A stretch of DNA of 64,000 nt from Candidatus Termititenax aidoneus (GTDB lineage Bacteria > Margulisbacteria > Termititenacia > Termititenacales > Termititenacaceae), in the NCBI GenBank assembly GCA_003864455.1, contig BGZN01000004.1, forward strand, positions 3,125 through 67,124. The letters run 5' to 3'. The notes beneath the pieces were generated by a model, which worked only from the letters and a program-made list of their open reading frames with translations, was not told the DNA's origin and searched no databases. Positions 5,233 through 52,376 of this stretch are shown one piece after another. The first letter of the stretch is position 1; every line of letters starts with the position of its first letter. A program made the translations under genes and the position numbers.

Positions 5233-6666
5233 ATGGCAGAAAAGTTGATTTTCGAATATTCGCAAAAAGGCCGGAAAGCGCATACTTTGCCGGACGCGCC
5301 GCCGGTCAGTTTTGGTTTGCCGGAAAGAAAAGGCTTGCGCCTGCCGGAAGTCTCGGAAGTCGATGTCACACGGCATTACACTAAACTCTCGCAGCAAAAT
5401 TACGGCGTGGACAGCGGTTTTTATCCGCTCGGCTCCTGCACGATGAAATACAATCCGAAAATCAACGAACAGATTGCCGCGTGCGAAGAATTTGCCGAAA
5501 TGAATCCTTATGAGCCAGAACGTTTCGCGGCCGGACTGCTCAAAATACTTTACGCAGCCGAACAAATGCTCTGCCAAACTTTCGGTTACGCGAGATTTAC
5601 GCTGCAGCCAGCGGCCGGCGCGCACGGCGAATTTACCGGACTGTTGATAATTCGCGCGTATCATCTAGACCGCGGCGACACCCAGCGCGTCAAAATTTTA
5701 GTGCCCGACGCGGCGCACGGCACCAATCCGGCTTCCTGTGCGCTGGCCGGCTTTCAAATTGTAACTATTCGGTCTCTGCCGGACGGCGGTGTAGACCTAA
5801 ATGACCTAAAAAAACATCTCGACAATACTGTCGCTGGATTGATGCTGACTAATCCGAACACGCTCGGTTTATTTGAAAAAAATATTCTGCCAATCGCCGA
5901 GTTGGTGCATAACGCCGGCGGCCTGCTTTACTATGACGGCGCAAACGCCAACGCCACGCTTGGCCTAGCTCGTCCGGCCGATATGGGTTTTGACGTCTGT
6001 CATCTCAATTTGCATAAAACCTTTGCCACGCCGCACGGCGGCGGCGGACCCGGCTCCGGTCCGGTCGGCGTTACAACCGCGCTCGCGCCGTATCTGCCGC
6101 GTCCGCTAATCGATTTTCAAAACGGAAAATATTATCTGAATAATGACCGGCCTAAATCAATCGGCAAAGTGCATTCTTTTTACGGCAATGTCGGTGTGAT
6201 CCTCCGCGCTTACGCCTATCTAAAAATACAGGGTTCGGCAGGCTTGAAACGCGCTTCCGAATTGGCTGTGCTGAACGCCAATTATGTCAAAGCCCGTCTG
6301 CAAAAAGTTTATAATATTCCTTATCCGCAAATCTGTCAGCACGAGTTTGTCATCAGCGTCAAAGAATGGAAAAAGCAATATGGCGTGTCGGCCGCGGACA
6401 TTGCCAAACGCCTCATGGATTACGGTTATCATCCGCCGACGATTTATTTTCCGCTGATCGTGCCGGAATGTTTAATGATCGAGCCGACCGAAACGGAATC
6501 CAAAGAAACGCTGGACGCTTTTTGCGACGCCATGCTCAAGATCGCTACGGAGGTAAAGACGAACCCGGAGCTTGTAAAATCCGCGCCGCACAGCACAATT
6601 ATTGGACGTTTAGACGAAGTCAAGGCGGTCAAAGAGCCGGATTTGAATTATTTTGCCGGAGCTTAA
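5233..6666 (+). CDS. gcvPB: glycine dehydrogenase (decarboxylating) subunit 2
   Basis: [14 protein letters not shown]... is the usual GcvPB N-terminus, and a PLP-site region is present. The ORF is open from 5170, overlapping the gcvPA stop, but the conserved start aligns at 5233 with a GGGG Shine-Dalgarno. Confidence 0.88.
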
Positions 6667-6670
6667 GAAC

Positions 6671-6698
6671 AGGAATTGAACCTGCGACCCGCGCGTTA
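6671..6698 (-). repeat. partial duplicate of the tRNA-Thr 3' end (T-arm and acceptor 3' side, 28 nt)
   Basis: gaacaggaattgaacctgcgacccgcgc is identical to 7171-7198 inside the intact tRNA-Thr. The repeat is direct and sits 0.5 kb downstream. Confidence 0.7.
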
Positions 6699-6717
6699 TG
6701 ATACACTACCGAATATG

Positions 6718-7098
6718 AGAAAATTTACCATTGAATTTGAAGCAGGGGCATTGCCCACACAAAAAGAATTAGCAACAGCTTCTTTTCTCGCAAACCAAAG
6801 AAAGAAAATCTTATTTCTAAAACCGATAGACCGCAATCACATCAAAACTCCTGACATTATAATGGATAACTTAAAATGGGAAATGAAATGCCCTGAAGGT
6901 AAGGGAAAGTATTTGTTGCAAAACACTTTACACAAGGCAATAAAACAATCTGTCAATGTAATCATAGATTTAAGATGGATTAAAATTTCCCCGGAAGAAA
7001 AATGTATCAGTAAGTTAAATAAGGAATTTAACCTATCCAAAGCCCTGAAACGTCTGGTAATCATCACGCGGACAGAAATGCTTGACTTACAAAAATAA
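6718..7098 (+). CDS. hypothetical protein (orphan ORF inside the tRNA-Thr-bounded remnant)
   Basis: ORF of about 127 aa, MRKFTIEFEAG...IDLRWIKISPEEK..., AT-rich with atypical composition. No recognizable domain. Confidence 0.3.
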   Translation, partial: RKFTIEFEAGALPTQKELATASFLANQRKKILFLKPIDRNHIKTPDIIMDNLKWEMKCPEGKGKYLLQNTLHKAIKQSVNVIIDLRWIKISPEEKCISKLNKEFNLSKALKRLVIITRTEMLDLQK

Positions 7099-7161
7099 TT
7101 TGCTATGATTGCTATATAAAGCGCGGCCGGAACTGGAATGTATCGGTTGCGCTTTTTCTTT

Positions 7162-7237
7162 TGGAGCCGAGAACAGGAATTGAACCTGCGACCCGCGCAT
7201 TACGAATGCGCTGCTCTACCAGCTGAGCTATCTCGGC
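7162..7237 (-). tRNA. tRNA-Thr (anticodon CGT)
   Basis: The reverse complement GCCGAGATAGCTCAGCTGGTAGAGCAGCGCATTCGTAATGCGCGGGTCGCAGGTTCAATTCCTGTTCTCGGCTCCA folds as a cloverleaf. It has GTTCAATTC in the T-loop, anticodon loop TTCGTAA and an encoded CCA. Confidence 0.85.
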
Positions 7238-7760
7238 ATAAAGACAGATAATACTACCTATAACACAATTACAAAATAGCAATATATATTTAACGATACA
7301 TGAAACAGCAACCGTTGGTTGCTGTTAGCTATCTCGGCACGAAGACAATCACTATTATCTGCCAAATATTTACAAAATAACAACATCTACTCAACGTTAC
7401 ATGAAACCATAGCCGTCAGGCTATGGTTAGCTATCTCGGCACGAAGACAGTCACTATTATCTGTCAAATATTTACAAAATAACAACATCTACACAACCAT
7501 ACGGTAGCTTCGACAGGCTCAGCCACCGGGGTCAAATATTTACAATATCTACTCAACGTTACATAAAACCATAGCCGCAGGCTATGGTTCGCTATCTCGG
7601 CACGAAGACAGTCACTATTATCTGTCAAACATTTACAAAATAACAACATCTACACAACCATACGGTAGCTTCGACAGGCTCAGCCACCGGGGTTAAATAT
7701 TTACAATATCTACTCAACGTTACATAAAACCATAGCCGCAGGCTATGGTTCGCTATTTCG
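7238..7760. repeat. tandem repeat array of 4-5 units (90, 102, 161, 161 bp plus a partial unit); each unit begins with the tRNA-Thr 5' 11-mer and ends with a hairpin
   Basis: gctatctcggc recurs at 7227, 7328, 7430, 7591 and, degenerate, 7752. Units 7430-7590 and 7591-7751 are about 98% identical. Each unit carries the hairpin aaccatagccgcaggctatggtt. Confidence 0.8.
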
Positions 7761-10700: not shown

Positions 10701-12404
10701 CTAAACAGCCGCCACAGCTTCCAATTCCTGTTCTTGAAGCTCCGTGTCTTGTTTTTGTTTTTTCTTGCGGCGTCCTTCCTGCTCACGCCGGTCTTTTTGC
10801 TCGCGCTGGCGTTTAAGATAATCGCGCCAGACTCCGTACATACCTTCCAGATCTTCGTCCTGTTCTTCTTTATGTATAATTTTTCCCAGCAGCAAATTAA
10901 TCAATTTGCTTAGATTTTCTTTTTGTATATCGCGTTCATGGGCGATGCGGCTCAATTCCGCAAAAGAAATAATCGGCTGGCTCTGAACTTTGGCCTCTTT
11001 CGCGCCAATATCGCCAAAAGATAAAACGCCGCCGGATCTGCCAGCCAGAGCAGTTCCTTCCAGCCCTCTGAAATTATTCAGAATCATTTTTTCGCCGTTT
11101 TTGCCGGTAAGCATGGTTTGCTCCGCCGTCAGATTGGCAAAAGCCAGATTAATCTGTATCGGCCTGAGCATAACCTTTTCGCCGGTTACAACAGTATTGC
11201 CTGTATTGCCCGCCGCCAAAACTGCGGCGCCGGATTGATAGATATTTTTGGCGCTGTCAGAAAATACTGCGTTAACCGTATTATTTAAAACCGGACTATG
11301 CACAGCGCGTAAAATCTGCGCCGACATTCCCCCTGTGGCGGCGCTGTTAGACAGGTTTACCGCAGCAGCCGTATTCGCAGATGCGGAAGGCGGCGCGCCG
11401 GTCGCAGCAAGCGTGGCTGTTGCAGCTAGCCCGGTGGCTGAGCTTGTCGAAGCCACCGTATGCGCTCCAGCTGCAGCAGGCGCGGCGGTTGCAACTGTTG
11501 GAGTCGTGGGAACTGCTGGGGCGGCCTGGGTTACGGGAACTCCGGCAGGCACAACACGCCCTGCGCTAACCGTATTTTGCTGAACCGCCGCCGTGCCTGT
11601 ACTGGCCGCCGGCACATTGATTGTATTGTATTGTATTGAAGCCGTTTTAGAAAAAATATTTTGGGCTTGAGTATTTTGACCTGACCCAATATTTGACGTT
11701 ATGCTTCGCGCCGCCGCTGCCACAGTTTGATTTGAAATACCGGCGCGTGAGGCTGCTTGTACGGAAACAGTTGTATTGGCCGGCAGACTTACGCTGACCT
11801 TCACGCTGCGCCCCATAACAGGAGCAGAGGACTTGTCAGCGGCCTTGGCCGTAGCCAGGGCTTGGTCGGCCTTTGCCTCTGCAACGCGGCTATTTGCCAA
11901 ATGCTCGGCTGTAGTTTTGGCGGTAAGCTGCGCCTGTACAGAAGCTGAAGTATTTTGTTGTCCGACAGGTGTTTTCACATCCTGCGCTTTGTTTCCCGTA
12001 GAAGCGCTGACTATCGTTCCGGAACTCGACGCTGTATTGCTTGCTAAAGCGGATTTTGAAGAACCACCTGTTACCGGATCGCTAAAACTTACCGCTCTTG
12101 CGCCAGAACAAACCGGACAATTACAAGTGTCTGGATGTCCTCTCTGAATAGCGGCCGCCATAGCGCCCGCAGCTATTTTACTTCCTGCCGCCTGCTCAGC
12201 AACAACCAACGCCTCCACCTGCTTTGCTTGCTGCGGAGCAGCCTGTACGCTATTGGCATTCGACAATCCTCTTTGCACAATCACCGGCGCTCCTGACTTT
12301 GCTTGCTGTGGAACAGACTGCGCGTCATTAGCGCTTGACGCTCCTCGCTGCACAACTACCGGTCTTGCCGGCTGAGTAACCGCAAATAAACCAACACCGG
12401 TCAT
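10701..12404 (-). CDS. hypothetical protein, Ala/Thr/Ser/Val-rich low complexity, with a Cys cluster and a Lys/Arg/Glu-rich C-terminal tail
   Basis: 567-aa ORF with an N-terminal imperfect repeat (VVQRGASSANDAQSVPQQAK / VIVQRGLSNANSVQAAPQQAK), the motif CNCPVCSG, and the tail ...RQREQKDRREQEGRRKKKQKQ. Confidence 0.4.
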   Translation of the reverse strand: MTGVGLFAVTQPARPVVVQRGASSANDAQSVPQQAKSGAPVIVQRGLSNANSVQAAPQQAKQVEALVVAEQAAGSKIAAGAMAAAIQRGHPDTCNCPVCSGARAVSFSDPVTGGSSKSALASNTASSSGTIVSASTGNKAQDVKTPVGQQNTSASVQAQLTAKTTAEHLANSRVAEAKADQALATAKAADKSSAPVMGRSVKVSVSLPANTTVSVQAASRAGISNQTVAAAARSITSNIGSGQNTQAQNIFSKTASIQYNTINVPAASTGTAAVQQNTVSAGRVVPAGVPVTQAAPAVPTTPTVATAAPAAAGAHTVASTSSATGLAATATLAATGAPPSASANTAAAVNLSNSAATGGMSAQILRAVHSPVLNNTVNAVFSDSAKNIYQSGAAVLAAGNTGNTVVTGEKVMLRPIQINLAFANLTAEQTMLTGKNGEKMILNNFRGLEGTALAGRSGGVLSFGDIGAKEAKVQSQPIISFAELSRIAHERDIQKENLSKLINLLLGKIIHKEEQDEDLEGMYGVWRDYLKRQREQKDRREQEGRRKKKQKQDTELQEQELEAVAAV

Positions 12405-12515
12405 GTTAACCTTCCTTTGCCAGATAATCAGCAGCCTGCTTCAAAATAATATCGAGCAAACGCCGCTGCCCATCCTTTTTTAACCGCTCAGCATAAACTT
12501 GCGCTGTTTTGGTTT

Positions 12516-12947
12516 TCACGAAATGCTCCTTTCCGTAATGCTGGCGGCCTGTTTGCTCCGATGCTCCAGATAGGCCGGCATTTTTTCCACCAAGGCAAGA
12601 GTTTTAAGCAGCACATCGCGCAGAATAAAAATCTTTTTATCCATCTCGTCAATAAAAGTTTCCAGCACTTCAACTTTGTCGTTAAAAATATCCGTGTTTT
12701 TGGAAAGTATAGCGACAGCATGATAAACCGTCTCAAAAGTATTGGGGTTTTTGGCCAGCAGTTGATTGTATTTAGCGTTGATCTCTTTAGTCTGTTCGAC
12801 CTGCAGATTAATATAGTCTATTTTGCCCCAGAGCTTATCATTCTTGCGTACCGCTTCCAACTGAGCAAGCTGCTCTTTGAGCGCCGCCAAAACTTTATTC
12901 AATCCAGCTTCCGCGCCAGCAGTATTTTCTTTCACCGCGTCTGTCAT
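12516..12947 (-). CDS. hypothetical coiled-coil protein
   Basis: 143-aa ORF with a heptad-rich sequence. Its start overlaps the stop of the upstream 322-aa gene, so the two are probably in one operon. Confidence 0.4.
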   Translation of the reverse strand: MTDAVKENTAGAEAGLNKVLAALKEQLAQLEAVRKNDKLWGKIDYINLQVEQTKEINAKYNQLLAKNPNTFETVYHAVAILSKNTDIFNDKVEVLETFIDEMDKKIFILRDVLLKTLALVEKMPAYLEHRSKQAASITERSIS

Positions 12948-15426: not shown

Positions 15427-15930
15427 TCAGGCACGTGGATTATTCTCTATATTCTTTTCCAGTTTCTTGATTTCCGCTGTATCCTTTGCGGCGGACATTT
15501 TGGCAATATTTTGCAGTTTCCAGTTCAGGGCAGGCAGGTTTTGCAAATTGGGAAATGGCAGTAGTGACCAGTCGGGCTGATTATGCATTAGCGACAATAA
15601 AAAATCCTTATGCTTTGCAGTCAGCGATTTTTTAACCCTATTGATTACAGAAATTCTAACGGCTAATAACTCTTCAAGGCTTATTTCTTCTGTCATACCT
15701 ACAAAGGAATTAACAAAAATATCCTTTATATTCAGCAGATTTGGCTCAAGAATTTCTGAAAATGGACGATTGCCCTGTGCCAGATAAGCAATAAAAACAT
15801 CCATAAGGGAATCCAAATTTTTGTTTTTTTGCAAATAAATCCGCATATCAAATATATCCTTCGGATGTTGGCGGTCAAGCATAGCGTTGAGTTTGCCAGC
15901 GTATAGTTCCAAATAAGACAGACATTTCAC
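15427..15930 (-). CDS. AbiEii/AbiGii-family toxin-like protein, C-terminal portion only (nucleotidyltransferase N-domain absent)
   Basis: LELYAGKLNAMLDRQHPKDIFDMRIYL resembles the conserved E.LA.KL.A...R..RD.YD region in the C-terminal half of DUF1814/AbiEii proteins. The N-terminal GG..L nucleotidyltransferase motif is not present. The gene lies 24 bp downstream of AbiEi. Confidence 0.4.
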   Translation of the reverse strand: MKCLSYLELYAGKLNAMLDRQHPKDIFDMRIYLQKNKNLDSLMDVFIAYLAQGNRPFSEILEPNLLNIKDIFVNSFVGMTEEISLEELLAVRISVINRVKKSLTAKHKDFLLSLMHNQPDWSLLPFPNLQNLPALNWKLQNIAKMSAAKDTAEIKKLEKNIENNPRA

Positions 15931-15954
15931 CGTGGCTTCTTTCTTGAAAATCTG

Positions 15955-16719
15955 TCATCCAAAATTGCTTCCCTCTGGCACGCAGATGGCATATCTGCCT
16001 ATGTATTTGCCACCAACAACAAGTTGCCTTGCCCCTGTGCCTAAATCTATTTTAGTCTCATTCAACTTCTTATACCACGGATGGTTGACGGTAGAGGCAA
16101 CATATAAGAATAGTCTTTTGGCTTTGATAGAAACACATTTTTCCAACAGGGTTTGTAAAAGATTGCTCCTTAAAGACGGGCAGAGTTCCATAAGTTTCAC
16201 AAATTCATCATAATCCGCTTTGGTCGGCACAAGATACGCCATTTCCAGCAAGGCTCTTTCCGGACTGGAAACTATTAGCCCCTCAATATTGACTACTGAA
16301 TCCACAAGCGGTCTTCTGGTCTTGAACAACGGCATTGCCACAACATTATAAATCTTTTGGCTTTTGAGCCATTTCAAATGAGGTGTTCTGCTCTGATCTG
16401 TCCTGAATACATAATAGGTTTGGGCTTTTTTAAGAAAATGCCGCACCCCTTGCAAGTACAAGGCAGATTGCCCACCAAGGACAAAATCCAGTTTGTGCTT
16501 AAATTCCTGTTCTTGCATAGCCTTTATGCTCAAAAGCGGGGAAAGCGGTTTGTCCGTATGTTTATAAACCTCGGGGGCAACCCTTTCCAGCCAATTGCTT
16601 TTACGGTATTTTTGCAATAATTGGCTGGTAAAGCCATTATTTCGCAAATATTTATAGAACAACGGCTGCCCGCGTTCATAGGCTAGTAAAGCTTGCAGTT
16701 TGTTTCTGTTCTTTTTCAT
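15955..16719 (-). CDS. AbiEi-family antitoxin/transcriptional regulator-like protein
   Basis: 254-aa protein with an AbiEi-like N-terminal region and the typical position upstream of an AbiEii-like gene. Confidence 0.5.
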   Translation of the reverse strand: MKKNRNKLQALLAYERGQPLFYKYLRNNGFTSQLLQKYRKSNWLERVAPEVYKHTDKPLSPLLSIKAMQEQEFKHKLDFVLGGQSALYLQGVRHFLKKAQTYYVFRTDQSRTPHLKWLKSQKIYNVVAMPLFKTRRPLVDSVVNIEGLIVSSPERALLEMAYLVPTKADYDEFVKLMELCPSLRSNLLQTLLEKCVSIKAKRLFLYVASTVNHPWYKKLNETKIDLGTGARQLVVGGKYIGRYAICVPEGSNFG

Positions 16720-17071
16720 CAGTATACCTATGGTTTAGTGATAGAGTATCTTATAAAGATAAGCATAATATTTCTTTATATTATGTCAATACGCTATATT
16801 TACGGTATACTAACAAGAGTTTTGGTAAAGAGGCTTGTTAAGAATATCGGGTCATATTTAATTAACTCGATTTTGTTAAATGTTTCAGGGATAGCGCTAC
16901 TACCAGAACCAACCAGAAAAGTTTTACACTCGTTCAATGTGTGCTGGTAATCGTTTTTAACAGATATGCTTAGCAGCTTCCTAAACAGAAAACCCAAAAC
17001 CGCCAATAACGCCACAAGTGGCGTTGCCTTGCGTCTCGGCCAGTCGCTCCCGACCCCGACCCGCCGAAACA

Positions 17072-17192
17072 GTCGCCAAAAAGAAATTAAAAACGCCAAA
17101 TGCAGTGCGGTTTTTTGCCCCCCAACCTGAAACCGTCTTAAAAAACAACCTTGCTCTATTCACCAAAAGCTGTGATTTTGGGTGGTTTGGGG
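17072..17192. repeat. left arm of a 122-bp inverted repeat pair
   Basis: gtcgccaaaaagaaattaaaaacgccaaatgcagtgcggttttttgcccccc...gggtggtttgggg matches the reverse complement of 25542-25663, with 3 small indels or mismatches. Confidence 0.85.
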
Positions 17193-17208
17193 TATAATGG
17201 AGGTGTTA

Positions 17209-17573
17209 TGGTAATCCGCCAAGAATACTTAAATCAACTAAAACTTCTCAAAGATCAAAAGATTATAAAAGTCATCACTGGTATTCGCCGTAGTGGCAAA
17301 TCCACACTTTTGGAACTTTTTCGCGACGAATTGGAAAAGCAAGGTATCAAAAAATCTCAGACTCAATCTTTCAATTTTGAGGAAGAGAAAAATGTGGATC
17401 TGCGAGATTGGCGAAAATTACATCAAACAATAGAGAAAAAACTCGTCTCCACCGAGATGAACTATATTTTTTTTGACGAAATCCAAAAAGTTGAGAAGTT
17501 TGAAGAGGTAGATTTTGTAGTGGAAAAGGGTAGCGGCGTGCGAAAATACTACCAAGTGGCATTGAAAAAATAA
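17209..17573 (+). pseudogene. truncated ATPase (AAA_14/DUF4143 family), N-terminal fragment
   Basis: Walker A VITGIRRSGKSTLLEL and Walker B IFFDEIQ match the about 400-aa DUF4143 ATPases, but the ORF stops after about 120 aa. A TATAAT at 17193-17198 immediately follows the left inverted repeat. Confidence 0.55.
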
Positions 17574-17613
17574 ATGTTGTTGATTGGCTATTAAATAAAG
17601 GAAAACAAAACTT

Positions 17614-19101
17614 ATGAACAACAACGAAACCCAACAACTCGAACGCACCCTCTGGGACGCCGCCAACAAACTGCGTGGCAATATCAACTCCTCCGACTAC
17701 AAATACGTCGTGCTGGGGCTGATTTTCATCAAATATGTTTCCGACGCTTTTGAAACGCAATTCGCCAAATACAAGGTGGAAGGCTTTGATGAGTCCGACG
17801 AGGATTTCCTCCGCGATTACCTGACCAAAGACAACATCTTCTATGTCCCGCCCACTGCTCGCTGGAAATATCTCCAAGACCACGCGAAAACCCCGCAAAT
17901 CGGCGAACTCGTGGACAAGGCAATGGACGCCATCGAAAAAGAGAATAAATCCTTAAAAGGCGTTCTCCCAACCAACTACGGACGCGAAGAATTGGACAAA
18001 ACCCGCCTCGGCGAACTGATTGACCTTTTCACCAACAAAATCCGTTTCGGCGCAGACAGCAAAGACCTGCTCGGGCGCGTCTATGAATACTTTATGGGAA
18101 TGTTTGCCGACAGCGAAGGCAAACACGGCGGCGAGTTTTACACCCCGCGCTCCATCGTCCGGCTGCTCGTAGCAATGATTCAGCCCTTCAAAGGCAGAGT
18201 ATATGACCCTTGCTGCGGCTCCGGCGGAATGTTTGTCAGCAGCGAAGATTTCGTGGCGGAACATTCCGGGCGTATCGGCGACATCGCCATTTACGGACAG
18301 GAACTCAACACCACCACTTGGCGTCTTGCCAAAATGAATATGGCGATTCGCGGCATTGACGCACGCCTCGAACAGGGCGACACCTTGCAGGACGACAAAC
18401 TCAAAGATTTGAAGTTTGATTTCATCCTCGCCAATCCGCCGTTTAATATCAGCGATTGGGGACAAGCCCGCGCCCAGGACGATGTCCGCTGGCAGTTTGG
18501 CACTCCGCCCGCCGGCAATGCCAACTACGCTTGGATACAGCACATCGTCCACCACCTCTCGCCTGCGGGAGTCAGCGGTTTTGTAATGGCAAACGGCACA
18601 ATGACCAGCAACACCTCCGGCGAAGGCGACATCCGCCGCCGCATCGTGGAAGCCGGACTCGTGGACTGCATCATCGCTTGCCCCGACAAACTCTTTTTCA
18701 ATGTTACGCTCCCGTGCTGCCTCTGGTTCGTTTCCCGCGACCGCGCCAACCGCAAAGACAAAACCCTCTTTATTGACGCCCGCAAACTGGGCTTTATGGA
18801 AAGCCGCAAAACCCGCAACCTCGCCGAAAGTGACATTCAAAAAATCACCGCCAAATATCACAAGTTCGTTTCGACCGGTGTAACGACAGATGAACCGGGC
18901 TTTGCCAAAGTTGCCACGCTGGAAGAGATCCGCAAAAACGGCTTCGCCCTCACGCCGGGCTTGTATGTCGGAAGCGAAGCGGTGGCAGACGACGGCGACC
19001 TTGACCAGCAAATCGCCAACCTCAAAGCCGAACTCCTCGCCGGTTTTGAAAAAGGCAGAGCGTTGGAAGAGAAAATTATTTACAACTTAAAGGAAGTCTA
19101 A
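17614..19101 (+). CDS. hsdM: type I restriction-modification system DNA methyltransferase subunit
   Basis: N6-adenine methyltransferase motifs, including the catalytic motif in FILANPPFNISDW, and the HsdM N-terminal domain. Confidence 0.9.
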   Translation: MNNNETQQLERTLWDAANKLRGNINSSDYKYVVLGLIFIKYVSDAFETQFAKYKVEGFDESDEDFLRDYLTKDNIFYVPPTARWKYLQDHAKTPQIGELVDKAMDAIEKENKSLKGVLPTNYGREELDKTRLGELIDLFTNKIRFGADSKDLLGRVYEYFMGMFADSEGKHGGEFYTPRSIVRLLVAMIQPFKGRVYDPCCGSGGMFVSSEDFVAEHSGRIGDIAIYGQELNTTTWRLAKMNMAIRGIDARLEQGDTLQDDKLKDLKFDFILANPPFNISDWGQARAQDDVRWQFGTPPAGNANYAWIQHIVHHLSPAGVSGFVMANGTMTSNTSGEGDIRRRIVEAGLVDCIIACPDKLFFNVTLPCCLWFVSRDRANRKDKTLFIDARKLGFMESRKTRNLAESDIQKITAKYHKFVSTGVTTDEPGFAKVATLEEIRKNGFALTPGLYVGSEAVADDGDLDQQIANLKAELLAGFEKGRALEEKIIYNLKEV

Positions 19102-20210
19102 TGACTACACAAACCGTAAAATTAGGCGAGGTGTGCGAGATAAACAGAGCGTCAATCGGTAAGGATTACGCTTTTGATAGCATTGAATACCTTGATACTT
19201 CCTCGGTAACGAGCGGCACTTTTTCTGAAACTGAACATTTGAATTTGGCTGACGCACCAAGCAGAGCAAAACGCATTGTCCAAAACAACGACATTGTGAT
19301 TTCAACAGTTCGTCCAAATTTAAGGCATTTCGGCATTATTCAAAACGCCAAACCCAATATGGTTGTTTCAACAGGTTTTGCTGTTTTAACAATTGACGAA
19401 AGCAAAGCAGATTACAGTTATATTTATTATCTCCTTACAAAAGACGACATAGTAGATTATTTATCAGCAGTCGCCGACCAAGCAGTTAGCACATATCCCG
19501 CATTCAATCCCTCTGTCTTGGTAAACCTTGACCTCTCCCTTCCTCCTCTCCCAGAGCAGCAGCGCGTAGCGGGGATTTTGGGCAGTTTGGACGAAAAAAT
19601 CGAAAACAACCGCACCCTCGTCCGCACCACCGAAGCCCTCGCCCGCACCATCTTCAAAAAACACATCGCCGCAAATGAGGAAAACAAGGGGTGGGAAACG
19701 GTAAAATTAGGTGATGTTTGCGAAGTTTTTATCGGTGGAGATGCTCATAAATATGACATAGTAAAGCAATCTGATAAAACTCATAACGTACCAGTATTTT
19801 CCAATGGCATTGTCAATGAAGGACTTTACGGTTATACAAAAAACGCAGAAGTAAAGGCGGGTTCGGTGACAGTCAGTGCCAGAGGAACTGTTGGTTTTAT
19901 AAAGCTACGAGATACTGATTTTGTTCCTATTGTCCGTTTGATTGCGGTTATTCCAAAAGAAGACGATGTTAGCGGCTATTTTCTTGAAGCAGTTTTACAA
20001 AAAGAAACAATTAACGCAAGTGGGTCAAGCCAACAACAAATAACGGCACCAATGATTAAAAACCTTAGAATCAAACTCCCTCCCGCCGCCGTCTTGCAAT
20101 CGTTCGATGCCGTCGTAGAGCCATTGTTTGCCGAAATCGGCTTTCTCACCCGCGAAAACCAAACCCTCGCCGCCACCCGCGACAAACTTTTAAGGAAACT
20201 AATTAAATGA
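19101..20210 (+). CDS. hsdS: type I restriction-modification system specificity subunit
   Basis: Two target-recognition domains separated by conserved central (LPPLPEQQRVAGILGSLDEKI) and C-terminal (LPPAAVLQSF...LFAEIGFLTRENQTLAATRDKLLRKLIK) repeats. Start overlaps the hsdM stop. Confidence 0.85.
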   Translation: MTTQTVKLGEVCEINRASIGKDYAFDSIEYLDTSSVTSGTFSETEHLNLADAPSRAKRIVQNNDIVISTVRPNLRHFGIIQNAKPNMVVSTGFAVLTIDESKADYSYIYYLLTKDDIVDYLSAVADQAVSTYPAFNPSVLVNLDLSLPPLPEQQRVAGILGSLDEKIENNRTLVRTTEALARTIFKKHIAANEENKGWETVKLGDVCEVFIGGDAHKYDIVKQSDKTHNVPVFSNGIVNEGLYGYTKNAEVKAGSVTVSARGTVGFIKLRDTDFVPIVRLIAVIPKEDDVSGYFLEAVLQKETINASGSSQQQITAPMIKNLRIKLPPAAVLQSFDAVVEPLFAEIGFLTRENQTLAATRDKLLRKLIK

Positions 20211-22363
20211 GTATGCTAACTAAAATTACAGATTACACTCACAAGTCTTTCAAGAAGTTCACGAACCCACCTGACTTAGAGTTCAGACAAAAAAACATCG
20301 TCTTTGGCTATAATGGCAAAGGCAAAAGTGCTTTTGCTCTCGGTGTTAAAGCGGAATTTCTGAAAGATGCGTCAAAAACCGACGCCCATTTTCGTTTGTT
20401 TAATAAGGAATACATAGGCAAGGATTTAATGCTTGAAAATAGCAATGGAAAACTGAAAGGAGTTAAAGCAAATTTCAGCGAAAAAGATGTAACTGCCGAA
20501 ACCAGAATAAAGGAGTTGGAATCTGAAATTGTTAAGCCAGAAGATATTAAAAAACAAGAAGAGGAAATTCTAAAAATAAGGAAAGATGCAAGAAAAGAAG
20601 TTGATAGTATTCACGACAGGAAAAAAGGTAAAGCCAGAATTGCGAAAAAAGAACAGAGTAAACCTGTTGAAGATATAATTAAACTTTACGAAAGCGACTA
20701 TACGGAAGCATACAAAATTGAAACAGATGATGAAAAGTTACTAAAAACAACAGGCGACGACTCAATCTCGAAAGAAATAGAGAAATTTGAAAGTTTGCAA
20801 AATCTAACTTTCACAACTTATTCAGAGACAGAAATAAACGAATTAAAAGCCATTTTTGAGGAAAAATTTGGCGAAGATGTTGAAATTCCGGCAAATGAAA
20901 TTGTGAATTGGATGTCACAAGGTTTGACTTTGCATAAAGATGGCGACAGTTGCAAAATGTGTGGCGGGAAATTGGATTATCAGTCGGTAAAAACGAAGAT
21001 AGAACAATACAAAGACAACAGAAAACATCAAGCGATTGAGAAATTAAAATCTTTCCAAACTAAACTGAAAAAATCCTCTGATGAGATAGAGAGTATCGCA
21101 AAACAAGAAAAAACCTATTCCGCAATTATTGGGGAATCGGTCAAAGAATCATTTCAAAATATAATTGGAAGCAAAACCTCGTTTGAAGAATTAGACAAAT
21201 CATTGCAAGCGAAGATTGAAGACATCTTATCTTCAAATAGTTTTGATTTTGATAAATTGAAATCTGTTTCTGAATCAATTAAAACAGAAATTGAGAGAAC
21301 ACAGAGGGAGAAAAGCCAACAATTAACCACCTTGCGAAACAAACAAAGCAATTTAGAAACATTGGTCAAAGGTTCAATCGGTTTAGAAGTCAAAAATTCT
21401 CAAACCATCAAAGATAAACTGGCAGAGATTAAGAAAAAAGAAGATGATTTGAAGAAAGCTAAAGATAAAAACACTGAAACTCAAGGAGAAATTCAAAAAC
21501 TGAAAACTTCTAAAAGCCCGACCAAAGATTTTGCAGAGTTTGTATCTCAAATTTTGCAAGACATCAACATCTCGCTGAAAGTTGAAGTAGAAGCGACAGA
21601 CAATAACTACATAATCAAAAGTTCACACGAAGAGGTATTACTTACCATAAGCGACATCAGCGAAGGTGAGAAAAACTTGTTGGCTTTGTTATTCTTTTAC
21701 TACGAACTTTTTAATGATAATAAACAGACCGAAGTCAAAACCGATATTGAGTTGGTTATTGTTGACGACCCCATTTCAAGTATGGACGACGCAAACAAGT
21801 TTTATATTTTGGAATTGATGAAAAACATTTTGAATTTAGAATCGCAACAAGTATTTGTTCTAACTCATAGTTGGGACGATTTCTGCAATCTTTCTTATGG
21901 AAGAAAAACAGGTGAAGCAACCTCAAAGTTTTCGACTATTGAAATCAGAAAGAATAACGGAAAAAGTTATTTAGAAAAAGTTGGAAACATTGAAAAACCA
22001 TATAAGCACTTATTCAAAGAACTCTACGATTTTTCGCAGAAGTCAGAAAAAGATATTGGAACTGATTGTGAAATCTACCATTTTCCGAATGTGATGAGGA
22101 GAGTTTTTGAAGAATGGTATAGTTTTAAGATTGGGAAAGATTTGAATTTAACAAGTAATCAACTTGACCGTCTGGCAAATGATTTTGCTATAACCGATAC
22201 AAATAAAAAAACAAAATTAGGAATGCTACTCAAAGTTTGCAACATTCTTTCTCATTCAATCAACACAACAAAAAACCCGCAAGAAATTCATCAATCATCA
22301 AAATTTTTGATGAAATTGATTGAAGACAACGATAGATTACATTTTAATTCAATGAAGGGATAA
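20207..22363 (+). CDS. RloC/PrrC-like anticodon-nuclease candidate (ABC/SMC-type ATPase with coiled-coil and CxxC insert)
   Basis: Walker A GYNGKGKSAF; a long Glu/Lys-rich coiled coil containing CKMCGG (zinc-hook-like); Walker B/D-loop IVDDPISSMDD and H-loop LTHSWDD; C-terminal MRRVFEEW...NILSHS fits the PrrC anticodon-nuclease R-x3-E...H motif. Located between hsdS and hsdR, as prrC is. Confidence 0.55.
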   Translation: MSMLTKITDYTHKSFKKFTNPPDLEFRQKNIVFGYNGKGKSAFALGVKAEFLKDASKTDAHFRLFNKEYIGKDLMLENSNGKLKGVKANFSEKDVTAETRIKELESEIVKPEDIKKQEEEILKIRKDARKEVDSIHDRKKGKARIAKKEQSKPVEDIIKLYESDYTEAYKIETDDEKLLKTTGDDSISKEIEKFESLQNLTFTTYSETEINELKAIFEEKFGEDVEIPANEIVNWMSQGLTLHKDGDSCKMCGGKLDYQSVKTKIEQYKDNRKHQAIEKLKSFQTKLKKSSDEIESIAKQEKTYSAIIGESVKESFQNIIGSKTSFEELDKSLQAKIEDILSSNSFDFDKLKSVSESIKTEIERTQREKSQQLTTLRNKQSNLETLVKGSIGLEVKNSQTIKDKLAEIKKKEDDLKKAKDKNTETQGEIQKLKTSKSPTKDFAEFVSQILQDINISLKVEVEATDNNYIIKSSHEEVLLTISDISEGEKNLLALLFFYYELFNDNKQTEVKTDIELVIVDDPISSMDDANKFYILELMKNILNLESQQVFVLTHSWDDFCNLSYGRKTGEATSKFSTIEIRKNNGKSYLEKVGNIEKPYKHLFKELYDFSQKSEKDIGTDCEIYHFPNVMRRVFEEWYSFKIGKDLNLTSNQLDRLANDFAITDTNKKTKLGMLLKVCNILSHSINTTKNPQEIHQSSKFLMKLIEDNDRLHFNSMKG

Positions 22364-22365
22364 CT

Positions 22366-25300
22366 ATGAATACAATCTTAAACGAAGACCAAATAGAACA
22401 AATGACGCTGGAGATTTTCGGCGAATTGGGCTGGACTGTAAAGCACGGCGCACAAATCAGCCGCGATGCCGACCTTTACGCTCCACTGCCGGATGGTGCG
22501 ACCACTTCCGCCGAGCGTGATTTTGGCGATGTGGTGCTGCGTGGTCGCTTGGAGCAAAAAATCCGCGAAATCAACCCGTGGCTGCCGAGCGAAAAGTTGG
22601 ACGAGGTGTTGCGCAAAATCACCCGCACACACGGCGCAAACGACATTGACAACAACCGCCAGTTTCACCACCTTTTGACCGAAGGTGTGGACACCGAATA
22701 CCGCGACGGCGGCGAAGTAAAAACCCGCAAAGTGTTTTTTGTGGATTTTCAACAACCCGAAAACAACGACTTTCTCGCTGTCAACCAACTGACCGTGATT
22801 CAGGACGGCGTCAACAAACGCCCCGACATTGTGCTGTTTGTCAACGGCTTGCCCCTCGGTGTAATTGAACTCAAAAACGCCGCCGATGCCACCGCCGACC
22901 TTTCCGCCGCTTACAACCAAATCCAAACTTACAGGGCAAAAATCTCAAATCTGTTCCGTTTCAACGAACTCTGCGTGATTTCCGACGGACTTGACGCAAA
23001 AATCGGCACTTTTTCCGCCCCCGAAAACCGCTTTACCGCTTGGAAAACCATTAACGGCGAAGAAATACAGCGCAGCGTGCAGATTGACACGCTGACACGC
23101 GGAGTGTTTGAAAAATCGCGTGTTTTGGACATTATCAAAAACTTCATCGTCTTTGAACGCGACGACACCAACTACATCAAAAAACTTGCCGCCTATCATC
23201 AGTATTGGGTGGTGAATAAAGCGCTAGCGACGACCACGCAGGCAATCGCAGGCGACCATCGCGCCGGTGTCGTCTGGCATACGCAAGGCAGCGGCAAGTC
23301 GCTTTCTATGGTGTTTTATGCCGGTAAGCTGATTGCGACGAGCGAACTGCACAACCCGACCCTCGTCATCGTTACCGACCGCAACGACCTCGACGGGCAA
23401 CTTTACAGCACTTTTCATAACTGTGCCGATTTGCTCCGTCAAACGCCCGTGCAAGCCACGAGCCGTGCCGATTTGAAGGACAAACTCAACCGCGAAGCCG
23501 GCGGAGTGATTTTTACTACCATTCAAAAGTTTGAAGAAAGCAACGAAGCAATTTCTGGGCGTTCAAATATCATCGTCATTGCTGACGAGGCGCACCGCTC
23601 GCAATACGGGCTGAAAGCGAGAGTTGGGCGTGACGGCGAGGTGGCGTATGGTGCGGCAAAATATATGCGCGACACGCTGCCCAACGCTTCGTATATCGGC
23701 TTTACCGGCACGCCGATTGAACTTGACGACCGCTCCACGCCGGCGGTGTTTGGCGATTATATTGATATTTACGATGTGGCGCGTGCGGTAGAAGACGGCG
23801 CAACAGTGCCGATTTATTACGAATCACGCTTGGTTGATTTGGGATTCGACGATGAGACGAAAAAGTGGATGGACGAAGAAGTTGACGCGCTTTTTGAAGA
23901 TGTGGAAATGAGTAAGAGCGAGCAACTGAAAGCCGAATTTGCCCAGAAAGAAGCCATTGTCGGCAACCGCGAGCGCGTGAAGTTGATAGCCCGTGACATT
24001 GTGGAGCATTTTGAAAAACGCGAGGAAGTTTTCGCCGGCAAGGGAATGATTGTGGCAATGAGCCGTCAAATTGCGGCGTCGCTTTATGAGAAAATTATCG
24101 CCCTGCGTCCCGACTGGCACAGTGACGAGGTAACTTCCGGCGCACTCAAATGCGTTATCACCGGCGCGTCGAGCGACCCGGCGAATTTGCAAAAACATAT
24201 CCGCAGCAAACCCGACCGCGTGATTGTGGAGAAACGCTTCAAAGACCCGAAAAGCGACCTGAAACTCGTGATAGTGTGCGATATGTGGCTGACCGGTTTT
24301 GATGTGCCGCCGCTTCACACGATGTATCTTGATAAACCGCTGAAAATGCACAATTTGATGCAGGCAATTGCCCGCGTGAACCGCGTTTATCCCGACAAAG
24401 TCGGCGGGCTGGTGGTGGATTATCTCGGCGTGGCGGGAGCGCTGCGCGATGCGATGGCGGTTTATGCTAAATCCGGCGGAACTGGGACGCAAACGGTTGA
24501 TGTTGAGGCGGCAGTGGTGGAAATGAACCGCCGCGTGGAAGTGGTGCGCGATTTGTTCCACGGCTTTGATTATGCGGCGTTTTTCACCGGCTCGGCTGGG
24601 AAAAAATTAGAAATAATGCTGGACGCCGAAGAGTTTATCTTGGGTAAAGTGGAAGACGGCGAAGCGCGCGTCTGAAACGCGAAGTTCACGGACTCTACAA
24701 GGCATTTTCGCTCGCAATGCCGCAACCCGACGCACTCGCAATTCGTGAAGAAGTGGCATTTTTCCAAGCAGTGAAAGCCCGCCTGACCAAAGCAGGTGAA
24801 ACCGGAAAATTAGACAAGGACTACAAAATACAGTTGCAACAGATTGTGGACAAAGCGATTCAACCGCTCGGCATTGTGGACGTGCTTGAAGCGGCGGGGG
24901 TTGAAAAACGCGAACTGCCAATGCTCTCAGAAGAGTTTTTGGCGGAAATCCGCAATTATAAGCGCAAAAGTTTGGCAGTCAGAGCATTGGAAAAACTGCT
25001 TGCTGACCAAATCCGCGCCGGGTTTGCTCACAACGCCATCAAGAGCGAACAATTCAGCGAACTGATTAAAAAGGCATTAGACCGCTACAAAAACGGCACT
25101 ATCGAAGCGGCGCAAATCATTGAGGAGTTGATAGACATTGCCCGCAAATTGAAGGCAAACATAGAAAATCGCCCCGCCGATATGACCGATGACGAAATCG
25201 CCTTTTACGATGCCCTCGCCGACAACGGCTCCGCCCGCGAAGTCCTCGGCGATGAACAACTCCGCGAAATCGCCCGCTATCTCGTGGAAAAAGTCCGCAA

Positions 25301-25469
25301 AAACATCACGACCGATTGGAGCGTGAGAGAAAGTGCAAGAGCGCAGTTGAAATACGAAGTTCGCGTAGCGCTGAACAAATTCGGCTACCCGCCGGATAAA
25401 CAAGCCATCGCCACAGAGCGCGTGCTGCAACAAGCCGAAGTGTTAGGCAATCAGGTTTCAGAGCAGTAA
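22366..25469 (+). pseudogene. hsdR: type I restriction enzyme R subunit, interrupted by a frameshift near 24655-24675
   Basis: 22366-24675 encodes the N-terminal, helicase and motor domains (DEAH-like IVIADEAHRSQ). The C-terminal domain continues in another frame from about 24661 (LKREVHGLYKAFSLAMPQPDALAIREEVAFFQAVKA ... to 25469). The junction lies in a gcgcgcg run. Confidence 0.8.
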
Positions 25470-25541
25470 ACCGCACACCCCAACCCACCCGCAGCGAAAT
25501 TGACGAGGTGATTGAGAGCAAAGTTTTATAATCTGTCTAAC

Positions 25542-25663
25542 CCCCAAACCACCCAAAATCACAGCTTTTGGTGAATATAGCAAGGTTGTTTTTTAAGACG
25601 GTTTTTCAGGTTGGGGGCAAAAAACCGCACTGCATTTGGCGTTTTTAATTTCTTTTTGGCGAC
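25542..25663. repeat. right arm of the 122-bp inverted repeat pair
   Basis: Reverse complement matches 17072-17192. It ends 24 bp before tRNA-Leu(CAA). Confidence 0.85.
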
Positions 25664-25686
25664 AATTCCGATTTAGTTCCATTTTT

Positions 25687-25774
25687 TGGTGCCGAAGGTG
25701 GGACTTGAACCCACACACCCGCAAGGAGTTCACGATTTTGAGTCGTGCGCGTCTGCCAATTCCGCCACTTCGGC
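25687..25774 (-). tRNA. tRNA-Leu (anticodon CAA)
   Basis: Reverse complement GCCGAAGTGGCGGAATTGGCAGACGCGCACGACTCAAAATCGTG...GGTTCAAGTCCCACCTTCGGCACCA; long variable arm, anticodon loop CTCAAAA, encoded CCA. Confidence 0.85.
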
Positions 25775-35115: not shown

Positions 35116-35190
35116 AAATTAAAATACAAAATAAAAATAATTTACAGAAAATTTTCAACAAAAAATCCAACGGCAAAATACATTAAGAAA

Positions 35191-35600
35191 TTTCGATGCA
35201 TTTTACAGGTATATTTTATCGATAAGCGGGTAATTACTGTTTTGTCAGTAGATGATTTTTGAGGAAGTAAAAATATTTGTTTATGCTTACGCGCGGCAAA
35301 TATCTTTACTTGCGCTCGGCGGCTGAGTTTCGGACGGTGAGCTTGGGACGGTGAGCTTGTCGAACCGTCGAACCGTCAAAGCCATCGTAAAACGGTCATT
35401 TCGACATCTCGACTTCGCTCGATGACCACAGGCTCAATGACCGAGTAGGTTACGTTCGCTACGGGCAAAGATATTTGCCGCGCTATTTGTGAAAAAACGA
35501 AAAAATGGAGTTTTGTCATGAAAAAGTTTTTAAATTTAAGATCTGTTAATAATTGCCCCCCCCCCATTTTTGGCGTAGGTACGCTGAAAAGCTAAGTTTT
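35191..35600. repeat. copy A of a roughly 430-bp repeated intergenic element (conserved ends, variable inverted-repeat core, poly-C tract)
   Basis: 5' block ttcgatgcattttacaggtatattttatcgataagcgggtaattact and 3' block ggagttttgtcatgaaaaagtttttaaatttaagatctgttaataattgCCCCCCCCCCatttttggcgtaggtacgc are shared with 43425-43870. Inner inverted repeat gcgcggcaaatatctttac / gcaaagatatttgccgcgc. Confidence 0.8.
35539..35575 (+). promoter_or_regulatory. candidate promoter with a C10 homopolymer in the -35/-10 spacer (TTGCCC-17-TAGGTA)
   Basis: ttgccc at 35553-35558 and taggta at 35576-35581 flank a spacer dominated by a C10 run (35556-35565). It is about 120 nt upstream of the 35698 ATG, and a good Shine-Dalgarno aggagg is present. 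Confidence 0.35.
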
Positions 35601-35697
35601 CTCCACTCTCTATTTTCTCCTAATAAACATCGAATGTTAAACGCCGCTGCCGCGGTTGTCTGAGATTTGGTGTTTAAAAAAAATTTAGGAGGAATTT

Positions 35698-43279: not shown

Positions 43280-43424
43280 TTTGGTTTTTCCTTAAATGTA
43301 TAAAATTTCAAAAAAAAGCAGGTTATTTTACCTTATTTTTACTTGCCTTGTCAAACTCACCGTCAATTTTTGGCGTATTTAGGCAACTTTTTGATAAATG
43401 AATTAGTAAAAAACAACAACAAAA

Positions 43425-43870
43425 TTCGATGCATTTCACAGGTATATTTTCTCGATAAGTGGGTAATTACTTTTGTGTAAGTTTGTGAGCAGGTGAACTC
43501 TTTTAGAGCGAATATGTTTGCTTGCACGCGGAGAATATCTTTACCTGCGCGCGTGGTGGCTTCTCACTTAACTTCGCAGCCACGCTGCTTGTTAAGTTCG
43601 AACCAGACGCGCTCCGGCAAAATATTCTCCGCGCTTAACTTAAAGTAAACATGTGATTTTAGGCAGTGAAAATATTTGCTTCAAGCGGCCGTAACCTTCA
43701 GTGCTATGCCGTGGCCGCGGAAGTAAATATTTTCACTGCCGGAAAATTAGATGTGTTTTTTGAAAAATTTGTACAAAACAAAAAACGGAGTTTTGTCATG
43801 AAAAAATTTTTAAATTTAAGATCTGTTAATAGTTGCCCCCCTCCCCCCCCATTTTTCGTGTAGGCACGCG
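43425..43870. repeat. copy B of the repeated intergenic element (C6-T-C8 tract)
   Basis: Shares its end blocks with 35191-35600. Nested inverted repeats gcgcggagaatatcttt/aaaatattctccgcgc and cagtgaaaatatttgcttcaagcggccg/cggccgcggaagtaaatattttcactg. Contains a REP-like palindrome also seen at 1535 and 50632. Confidence 0.8.
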
Positions 43871-43983
43871 GAAAATCTAGAGTTTTTCACAAACGCGCTA
43901 AACAATAAAACCCTGTCCGGCTAAAGCCGGTTCGGGGTTTTTTGCGTTTGTGATAAATCTAAAAAAGAAAGGGGGTGTTTTTT

Positions 43984-52358: not shown

Positions 52359-52376
52359 TTTTAAAAGGGGTGTTAT

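Follow-up and report, generated by a model that had tools for sequence, protein, structure and literature searches.

Type I restriction-modification (R-M) systems can be phase-variable, as in Mycoplasma pulmonis hsd and Streptococcus pneumoniae ivr/SpnD39III, where hsdS is invertible. Invertible hsdS loci carry repeats inside several hsdS genes, swap target-recognition domains and usually possess a dedicated recombinase. Type I R-M systems are also linked to the anticodon nucleases RloC and PrrC, and the prr locus has the order prrA-prrB-prrC-prrD. A Mycoplasma invertible type I case is mentioned by Furuta, Abe and Kobayashi (2010, NAR 38:2428; PMC2853133), who described R-M systems with long imperfect inverted repeats on either side. 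In this class, the R-M system is complete, has no transposase or integrase linked to it and lies between imperfect inverted repeats that are found nowhere else. The best cases had repeats of 65 bp and 26 bp, 8-bp target duplications and empty sites (PMC2853133). Inversion-associated DNA duplication (DDAI; 2011, PNAS 108:1501) was considered according to the passages on it in PMC4671568 and PMC8963470. There, the segment at one inversion breakpoint recurs inverted at the other, and each copy has one native junction. As far as these passages go, DDAI and R-M-linked rearrangements are documented phenomena (PMC2853133, PMC4671568, PMC8963470).

The locus described here was found in a 64,000-nucleotide stretch of the genome of Candidatus Termititenax aidoneus, hereafter the window. 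Between two inverted repeat arms, it contains a cluster of about 8.3 kb of this termite-gut symbiont, comprising a type I R-M system and a candidate anticodon nuclease beside a tRNA gene. The locus shares with the class of Furuta et al. the complete R-M gene set, the lack of a linked transposase or integrase and the imperfect inverted repeats, found nowhere else in the window or the collections searched. It differs from the published cases in that the arms are longer, no target duplication is present and the arms appear to derive from the promoter of a gene inside the unit. The preliminary description of the locus overstated its unusualness, since R-M systems with long imperfect inverted repeats are a described class (PMC2853133). 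Invertible hsdS loci likewise tie inverted repeats to a type I system, but the window has a single hsdS, intergenic arms and no recombinase, and inversion would not affect specificity. The locus also resembles DDAI. In contrast to the described DDAI cases, only 122 nt of non-coding spacer were duplicated, and the un-inverted order was seen only in the distant relative L008, in a probably non-orthologous cassette; a replication template switch or another mechanism is a candidate. R-M-linked rearrangements, DDAI and a prr/RloC-type type I gene content are already known, and the locus opens no long-standing question.

The Inverted Repeat

The arm pair was recovered by repeat search, MAFFT and blastn alike. 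The left arm (17072..17192, plus strand) comprised 121 nt and the right arm (25542..25663, minus strand) 122 nt. Aligned with the reverse complement of the right arm, the left arm was identical in 119 of 123 columns (96.7%), which confirmed the long near-perfect inverted repeat with three small differences reported earlier. The arms differed by a C/A substitution at 17155, by one nucleotide in the length of a C run (C6 versus C5) and by two nucleotides in that of an A run (A3 versus A5). Identical stretches of 46, 22 and 37 nt lay within the arms in the MAFFT alignment, and two of the three differences changed a local hairpin on folding. The arms were intergenic and non-coding, with indels between them that disrupt any reading frame.

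The pair was the sole inverted repeat of at least 40 nt in the window. None of 100 dinucleotide-preserving shuffles of the window contained a match to a 71-nt piece of the arm with up to three mismatches. The window held two copies of the arm only, and a common genome-wide repeat, which the preliminary description had considered, was thus not apparent within these 64 kb. A search of the GTDB representatives with an arm 20-mer produced just six matches of 20-23 nt, all by chance, a 22-mer gave no match in the JGI metagenomes, and no arm match was obtained by two IMG/VR scans or by blastn against plasmids and phages. Nor was an arm homologue found in the relatives L007, L090, L008 and L091, which are too distant for alignment at the DNA level.

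Other identities of the arm were considered. The Rfam search reported tRNA only and no family matching the arm, and the arms folded more weakly than shuffled sequences (z = +1.2 to +2.2), which ruled out a riboswitch, sRNA or MITE. A dispersed repeat or MITE was also ruled out within the window by the presence of only two copies in 64 kb and the lack of a stable hairpin. The arm contained CAGTGCGGT, yet the window had no DUS/USS enrichment, and an uptake-signal sequence was rejected. Arm-like matches inside hsdS at 19338-19368 and 19568-19590 had an E value of 0.42 and were taken as chance.

Genes Between the Arms

The arms had been said to delimit exactly hsdM, hsdS, an RloC-like gene, a frameshifted hsdR and a truncated ATPase gene, and ORF and Pfam analyses bore this out. 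All genes were located on the plus strand. Next to the left arm was the remnant of an AAA_14 ATPase gene (DUF4143-type, PADLOC PDC-S01; 17208..17573; PF13173), whose 121-aa product was identical to NCBI protein P0121 of Ca. Termititenax aidoneus; the protein is about 412 aa long in full-length relatives. The remnant carries an in-frame internal deletion: when aligned with the L008 protein, its residues 8-101 correspond to residues 1-93 and its residues 99-118 to residues 339-358. The type I methyltransferase gene hsdM (17614..19101; PF02384 and PF12161) was followed by a single copy of the specificity subunit gene hsdS (19101..20210), in which two stretches matching PF01420 represent the two target-recognition halves. 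The hsdR gene, assigned by Pfam, was split into ORFs of 769 aa (22366..24675) and 250 aa (24717..25469). Sequence inspection and alignment with hsdR of L008 placed the shift in reading frame at a (GC)n run near 24665-24675. The 72-nt tail between the hsdR stop and the novel right-arm junction (25470..25541, plus strand) showed no terminator-like fold. With a frameshifted hsdR and an internally deleted AAA_14, the cassette is decaying; AbiEii at the same locus had an N-terminal truncation.

Domain searches detected no recombinase in the cassette, as noted before, nor in the ORFs at 10.7-17.1 kb. No tyrosine or serine integrase gene was present beside the tRNA gene in the ORFs at 10.7-25.5 kb.

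Relation of the Arms to the AAA_14 Gene

Sequence comparison identifies the arm as the region flanking AAA_14 on its 5' side, consisting of a putative promoter/operator region and about 75 nt. Just inside the left arm, the sequence reads TATAAT at 17193-17198, at the place given in the preliminary description, and GGAGG at 17199-17203, ahead of the ATG at 17208. In L008, a TATAAT is likewise located directly before the AAA_14 start. This -10/RBS region (17193..17207, plus strand) was not called by a consensus promoter scan. It lies outside the duplicated part. Within the arm, the motif CTATTCACCAAAA and an imperfect dyad (17156..17184, plus strand) with the half-sites CACCAAAA (17161-17168) and TTTTGGGTG (17176-17184) form a candidate operator/-35 element of the AAA_14 promoter. 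The motif was also present in the right arm.

The nearest AAA_14 homologue was P0122 on L093, with 81% identity. Upstream of its ATG, CTATCCACCAAAA was found at -49, as was TTTTGGTGG followed by GATAAT further on; the motif in the window is at -52. The inner ~50 nt of the arm were collinear with the promoter/operator region of this homologue. The similarity of the inner arm half to the L093 upstream region was short and marginally significant, with 12 of 1000 shuffles reaching the observed local-alignment score. Owing to this collinearity, the junction between the left arm and the AAA_14 gene appears native, and the left arm seems still attached to its original partner, the gene start. Since the arm corresponds to the 5' flank of AAA_14, the right arm would be an orphan copy beside the tRNA gene; it continues into the hsdR tail, with neither a -10 box nor a gene. 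The arms had been treated as anonymous termini and are instead best described as two copies of the AAA_14 5' flank.

Directly outside the left arm, a terminator-like hairpin region with a U-rich tail was found on the minus strand (16975..17071; MFE -40.6 kcal/mol, z = -2.83). Only one of 200 shuffles folded equally well, and a simple terminator scan did not call the hairpin. No minus-strand gene lies upstream of it in the present orientation. In a flipped-back cassette, it would be located after hsdR, where it may have served as the terminator.

The tRNA-Leu Boundary in Related Genomes

The right arm abutted tRNA-Leu(CAA) (25687..25774, minus strand) as previously stated, with 23 nt between the arm and the 3' end of the tRNA gene. 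This 3' end was also a synteny break, and alignments to L007, L090, L008 and L091 all stopped at window positions 25683-25689. Because synteny with four relatives ends here, the region was classified as a variable hotspot. From the tRNA 3' end onward, the cargo varied across five related genomes and included the defence genes type I R-M, RloC-like, PDC-S01 and AbiE. The closest relatives, L007 and L090 (accA 88-89% identical), carried other cargo after the tRNA gene. In L008 (accA 75% identical), tRNA-Leu(CAA) was followed by a gap of 400 bp, AAA_14 and hsdM through to hsdR. This cassette was co-directional with accA and therefore opposite to the orientation in the window. Compared with the window, identities were 54% for hsdM, 48% for hsdR and 45% for AAA_14. 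As these values are only 45-54%, orthology is doubtful, and the L008 cassette is probably not orthologous to that of the window. L008 also encoded two AAA_14/DUF4143 paralogues in opposite orientation, at 5840-7156 (minus) and 11477-12715 (plus).

An hsdM-based search yielded 80 loci, unrelated metagenome loci with 61-66% identity to hsdM of the window, which was closer to them than to hsdM of L008. They were too distant for aligning the arms and were used as a background set. Among 82 loci, AAA_14 upstream of hsdM occurred in the window and L008 only, and 81 related type I loci were examined for flanking inverted repeats, with none found.

The start of variable defence cargo at the tRNA-Leu(CAA) 3' end resembles tRNA-adjacent defence islands, but the window differs from these in lacking an integrase and a directly repeated tRNA 3' end. 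The terminal 24 nt of the tRNA gene, searched with up to three mismatches, occurred once in 64 kb, and blastn-short revealed no partial copy. As stated earlier, the arms are not att-type direct repeats. In L008, a direct-repeat scar matching the tRNA 3' end lay 190 bp downstream of the tRNA gene. No left boundary of the variable region was detected within the window by tblastn with genes of L091, L009 and L008.

Origin of the Arms

With a probability of about 50%, we interpret the arms as the scar of an old inversion of the cassette in a decaying, tRNA-adjacent defence island, and not as the ends of a mobile element. The ancestral order would have been accA, tRNA-Leu, a spacer S, AAA_14, hsdM, hsdS, rloC, hsdR and the terminator. 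The block from spacer S to the hsdR tail would then have been inverted. During this DDAI-like inversion, S would have been duplicated in inverted orientation, leaving one copy at the tRNA gene and carrying the other with AAA_14 to the far end. Duplication and inversion may have been a single event, and separate events are also conceivable. The left arm would keep supplying the -35/operator region to the cassette promoter with its TATAAT at 17193. Each copy appears to keep one junction of a single tRNA-AAA_14 spacer, as 23 nt separate the right arm from the tRNA gene and the left arm leads directly into the -10 box and ATG. An inversion is supported by the hairpin orphaned outside the left arm, with no counterpart at the present hsdR 3' end, by the reversed orientation at the same tRNA gene in L008, and by the lack of a recombinase, a target-site duplication and a tRNA-fragment direct repeat. 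The non-orthology of the L008 cassette, the different cargo in L007 and L090 and the marginal promoter similarity to L093 count against it, as does the lack of visible microhomology at both novel junctions. We infer the un-inverted single-copy state indirectly, because no relative is close enough for an arm alignment at the DNA level.

In the preliminary description, the arms were a substrate for homologous inversion. Inversion remains the theme, in line with the reversed L008 cassette, but the arms look like a by-product of rearrangement and not like its device. The arms could nevertheless be older than the present orientation, in which case RecA-type homologous recombination would flip, or would have flipped, the cassette between two interconvertible states. 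The identical stretches of 46, 22 and 37 nt suffice for occasional homologous exchange, and both the L008 orientation and the orphan terminator-like hairpin suit a flipped state. However, the second copy would still require an inverted duplication, and its origin is left unexplained. Flipping would also leave the promoter and the hsdS specificity as they are, since the arms are nearly identical. The arms have diverged at three sites, and two of these changes affect the local hairpin, which speaks against frequent conversion; in addition, the cassette is decaying. Flipping may possibly be ongoing, but as an account of the arms we consider this history unlikely. It is most improbable that the arms are a working switch for phase variation of the whole operon by RecA or an unlinked recombinase. 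Under such a switch, one state would be co-directional with the accDA/tRNA-Leu transcription unit and end at the hairpin terminator, and the other would run head-on into tRNA-Leu(CAA). The switch would adjust how strongly the methyltransferase and the RloC-like anticodon nuclease are expressed, at constant specificity.

The opposed AAA_14/DUF4143 paralogues of L008 would fit a history in which the entire AAA_14 gene was duplicated in inverted orientation together with its promoter, so that two paralogues faced each other across the R-M genes, and the tRNA-side copy subsequently lost everything beyond the start of the -10 box; deletions are common at the locus, as in AAA_14 and AbiEii. This course is improbable, as it needs more steps and a deletion that stops precisely at the promoter, and no AAA_14 coding remnant was found in the 72 nt from the hsdR stop to the right arm. 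An amplification or assembly artefact appears a little less probable still. The genome was presumably obtained from whole-genome-amplified cells, and whole-genome amplification yields inverted chimeras. The assembly of this uncultured symbiont is a draft (83,348-bp contig), the hsdR frameshift is located in a (GC)n run, and no independent assembly of the species was found in the collections searched. However, the arms differ at three positions, unlike one template assembled twice; both novel junctions are surrounded by long sequence that is otherwise syntenic or coherent; and the 64 kb contained no further long inverted repeats. Mobilisation or capture of the cassette as a unit had also been proposed. 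The cassette would then be a non-autonomous, transposon-like R-M unit with the arms as its long terminal inverted repeats, mobilised in trans and inserted 23 nt downstream of tRNA-Leu. Such units without linked mobility genes, with imperfect long inverted repeats unique in the genome, are described (PMC2853133), and the synteny break adjoins the right arm. This origin is very improbable, because the searches found neither a target-site duplication nor a recombinase, a repeated tRNA fragment or an extra arm copy, and inverted repeats flanked 0/81 related cassettes. The left flank (...GCCGAAACA) and the right flank (AATTCCGAT...) share no direct repeat. No arm copies turned up in GTDB representatives, JGI metagenomes, IMG/VR, plasmids and phages, and the inner arm half resembles the promoter of a cargo gene, which occurs in L093 without a repeat partner.

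If the inversion scar is the correct reading, the locus is a clean small-scale inversion that duplicated its own breakpoint, outside Helicobacter and in the barely studied Margulisbacteria. Its setting would be a tRNA-adjacent defence hotspot with different cargo in every relative examined. Defence cassettes could then be re-oriented, and promoters orphaned, without mobile-element machinery. Long inverted repeats that bracket a defence cassette need not be transposon ends.

The RloC-Like Gene

The candidate anticodon-nuclease gene (20207..22363, plus strand) is peripheral to the repeat question. It was located between hsdS and hsdR, had a GC content of 32-35% and encoded an AAA_13 ATPase that matched PF13166 at full length (residues 24-699, E = 3e-56) and PADLOC PDC-S06. 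A search of solved structures by sequence gave a coiled-coil match only and no solved homologue. The protein contained the Walker A motif GYNGKGKS, CKMC (CxxC) and a C-terminal RRVFEE...SHS, of which CKMC and RRVFEE...SHS were read by eye as candidates for the zinc-hook CxxC of a coiled-coil insert and for the R..E...H nuclease motif of such anticodon nucleases. In contrast to the prr/RloC systems, the match to the PrrC profile was weak (1.3e-9) and the nuclease motif was identified by eye only. The RloC-like size, the full-length AAA_13 domain and the CxxC motif agree with these systems, and the order hsdM-hsdS-ATPase-hsdR corresponds to prrA-prrB-prrC-prrD.

Inverted repeat and gene content of the cassette

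The two arms of the inverted repeat, at 17072-17192 (plus strand) and 25542-25663 (minus strand), shared 96.7% identity over 123 columns in MAFFT and blastn alignments. Three differences separated them: a single substitution, an indel of 1 nt within a C run and one of 2 nt within an A run. Because of the small indels, the repeat search split the pair into two pieces that MAFFT and blastn united. A 71-nt piece of the arm with at most three mismatches was reproduced in 0 of 100 dinucleotide-preserving shuffles of the window, and the pair was the sole inverted repeat of at least 40 nt within the 64 kb. The preliminary description of a long repeat with three small differences was therefore correct. 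A difference at three sites between the copies makes an assembly or amplification artefact unlikely. Further copies, for which a search had been proposed, were absent from GTDB representatives, JGI metagenomes, IMG/VR, plasmids and phages; the uniqueness of the repeat is shown for the window and these collections. A structured RNA or hairpin element was rejected as an identity of the arm, which folded worse than shuffled sequences and matched no Rfam family.

The gene content between the arms (17208-25469) agreed with the preliminary description. It comprised an AAA_14 ATPase gene of 121 codons (17208-17573), hsdM (17614-19101), hsdS (19101-20210), an AAA_13/RloC-like gene encoding 718 aa (20207-22363) and hsdR (22366-24675 and 24717-25469), interrupted by a frameshift located at a (GC)n run. 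The TATAAT noted just inside the left arm was found at 17193-17198, directly after the arm and followed by GGAGG and the ATG at 17208. The right arm did adjoin tRNA-Leu(CAA) (25687-25774, minus strand), at a distance of 23 nt. The left flank contained AbiEi, an AbiEii truncated at its N-terminus, Fur, an ATPase-like ORF and further unknown ORFs, and its GC content fell to 35-43%. The right flank consisted of accA-accD and conserved housekeeping genes. The products of accA and of the AAA_14 gene matched NCBI proteins of Candidatus Termititenax aidoneus (P0001 and P0121, respectively) on an 83,348-bp contig with 100% identity. The suggested comparison of GC content with the flanks revealed a mosaic cassette, with 50-56% for hsdM and 32-35% for the RloC-like gene. 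As the latter was much more AT-rich than the surrounding hsd genes with their 50-56% GC, a separate insertion into the type I operon is suggested.

The cassette seems to be in decay. AAA_14 carried an in-frame internal deletion: residues 8-101 corresponded to residues 1-93 of the homologue on L008, a contig of a relative, and residues 99-118 to its residues 339-358. The hsdR frameshift (24660-24720) fell at a GCGCGCG run and may reflect either a true slip that inactivates the gene or an error of sequencing. Close to the outer side of the left arm (15427-16719, minus strand), the AbiEi antitoxin gene was intact and the adjoining AbiEii toxin gene lacked about 127 N-terminal residues, matching profile positions 128-289 of 290; this AbiE pair is decayed. 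Such decay points to a scar rather than a device.

Origin of the repeat

The closest homologue of the AAA_14 protein, P0122, was 81% identical, and the other close homologues P0123, P0126 and P0128 were 71-72% identical. The gene of P0122 was located on a short AT-rich contig, L093, downstream of an unrelated DUF5684 gene, and its upstream region was collinear with the arm's inner part. An upstream motif was found at -52 in the window (CTATTCACCAAAA) and at -49 in L093 (CTATCCACCAAAA), followed by a dyad partner (TTTTGGGTGG and TTTTGGTGG, respectively), a -10-like box (TATAAT and GATAAT) and an ATG start in both. The score of the inner-half alignment was equalled or exceeded by 12 of 1000 shuffles, and the outer-half alignment with L093 was not significant in the shuffle test. 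The collinearity suggests that the arm's inner ~50 nt are the native promoter/operator region of AAA_14 and that the junction of left arm and gene is probably native. The right arm is an orphan copy, since it is followed by the hsdR tail and not by a -10 box and a gene.

Directly beyond the left arm, two strong hairpins with a U-rich tail formed on the minus strand at 16975-17071 (-40.6 kcal/mol, z = -2.8). As the cassette is now oriented, these hairpins had no minus-strand gene upstream, and no terminator-like fold was present at the 3' end of hsdR. With the cassette flipped back, the hsdR stop would be followed after 72 nt by the hairpins, as at the end of a normal operon. The element was not called by a simple terminator scan, so its support for an original orientation is modest.

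DNA alignments of the window with four contigs of relatives (L007, L090, L008 and L091) all ended at 25683-25689, where the tRNA has its 3' end. Identity of accA to the window was 88-89% for L007 and L090, 75% for L008 and 72% for L091. The cargo after the tRNA differed across the genomes examined: a DUF6291 gene in L007 and L090, a P-type ATPase and RelA in L091, and TRL, ankyrin and RHS genes in T. persephonae. L008 carried AAA_14 (412 aa), hsdM, two inserted genes, hsdS, Fic and hsdR, in the same direction as accA and the tRNA. The window cassette was opposite, its hsdR end lying next to the tRNA and its AAA_14 gene on the distal side. AAA_14 upstream of hsdM was found only in the window and L008, and in none of 80 metagenomic loci with hsdM relatives of 61-66% identity. 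As the cassette proteins of L008 were only 45-54% identical to those of the window, its cassette is an analogue by position and perhaps no orthologue. On L008, GGAACAAGTCCCGCCTTCGGCAC at 11248-11268 was a near-exact direct copy of the tRNA-Leu(CAA) 3' end (11054-11076), about 190 bp downstream. This att-like scar shows present or past use of the tRNA for integration in the relative. Two AAA_14/DUF4143 paralogues on L008 (5840-7156, minus strand; 11477-12715, plus strand) flanked the accD-accA-tRNA-Leu block in opposite orientation.

From these arrangements we infer an ancestral order of accA, tRNA-Leu, the spacer S between tRNA and AAA_14, AAA_14, hsdM, hsdS, rloC, hsdR and terminator, and an origin of the repeat in a single event. 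The segment reaching from S to the tail of hsdR would have been inverted while one copy of S stayed beside the tRNA, which is the most economical history. Each arm retains exactly one native junction, the hallmark of an inversion-associated duplication of DNA (DDAI). According to PMC4671568 and PMC8963470, this pattern was described in H. pylori and subsequently in further bacteria.

Alternative explanations and function

Two less probable histories stand beside DDAI: an older repeat may mediate homologous flipping of the cassette, or the whole AAA_14 gene may have been duplicated in inverted orientation and one copy then deleted. The preliminary description had also considered a unit mobilised or captured as a whole. 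Such a transposon-like R-M unit, of the class of Furuta et al. 2010 (PMC2853133), is disfavoured by the missing target-site duplication at the arms, the lack of further arm copies in the databases searched and the likely identity of the arm as promoter region of a cargo gene. In addition, when 81 related loci of type I, 1.17 Mb in all, were screened with a pipeline that does recover the repeat of the window, none had a flanking inverted repeat. An integrase-type island is likewise disfavoured; the window contained neither an integrase, looked for in ORFs from 10.7 to 25.5 kb, nor a tRNA-fragment repeat, in line with the earlier reading that the arms do not fit att direct repeats and that the cassette lacks a recombinase gene.

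Given that the two arms hardly differ and overlap no gene, flipping would alter neither the promoter nor hsdS specificity. A shufflon-type phase-variable type I system was ruled out on these grounds. Regulation could conceivably be affected only by way of read-through, or of convergent transcription, involving the accDA-tRNA-Leu unit, and a live inversion switch of the whole operon is very improbable. R-M systems with long imperfect flanking inverted repeats, inversions linked to R-M genes, defence hotspots next to tRNAs and hsdM-hsdS-ACNase-hsdR operons are already known. Candidatus Termititenax aidoneus, a Margulisbacteria symbiont of the termite gut, adds a tidy case of these phenomena in an unusual lineage.

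Other repeats in the window

Four tandem units of ~101-161 bp were located at 7226-7738 beside tRNA-Thr(CGT) (7162-7237, minus strand). Each began with AGCTATCTCGGCA, the reverse complement of the tRNA 5' end, and the last two (7417-7577 and 7578-7738) were 98% identical. The 5' end of tRNA-Thr and its upstream region are thus duplicated repeatedly. Beside the same tRNA, a solitary ORF of 140 aa (6676-7098) encoded a CdiA C-terminal toxin domain (PF18451). Direct repeats of ~430 bp at 35175-35603 and 43408-43888 (families D5, D6 and D9) were 80-89% identical and ~8.25 kb apart, both with a terminal C-rich run, and may bracket a duplicated or inserted segment. At 51500-53200, seven copies of a 55-nt coding motif (...AAATAYCCNAGCTGC...) and a 66-nt tandem pair (families D1, D7 and D8) indicated a repeat-rich protein gene.
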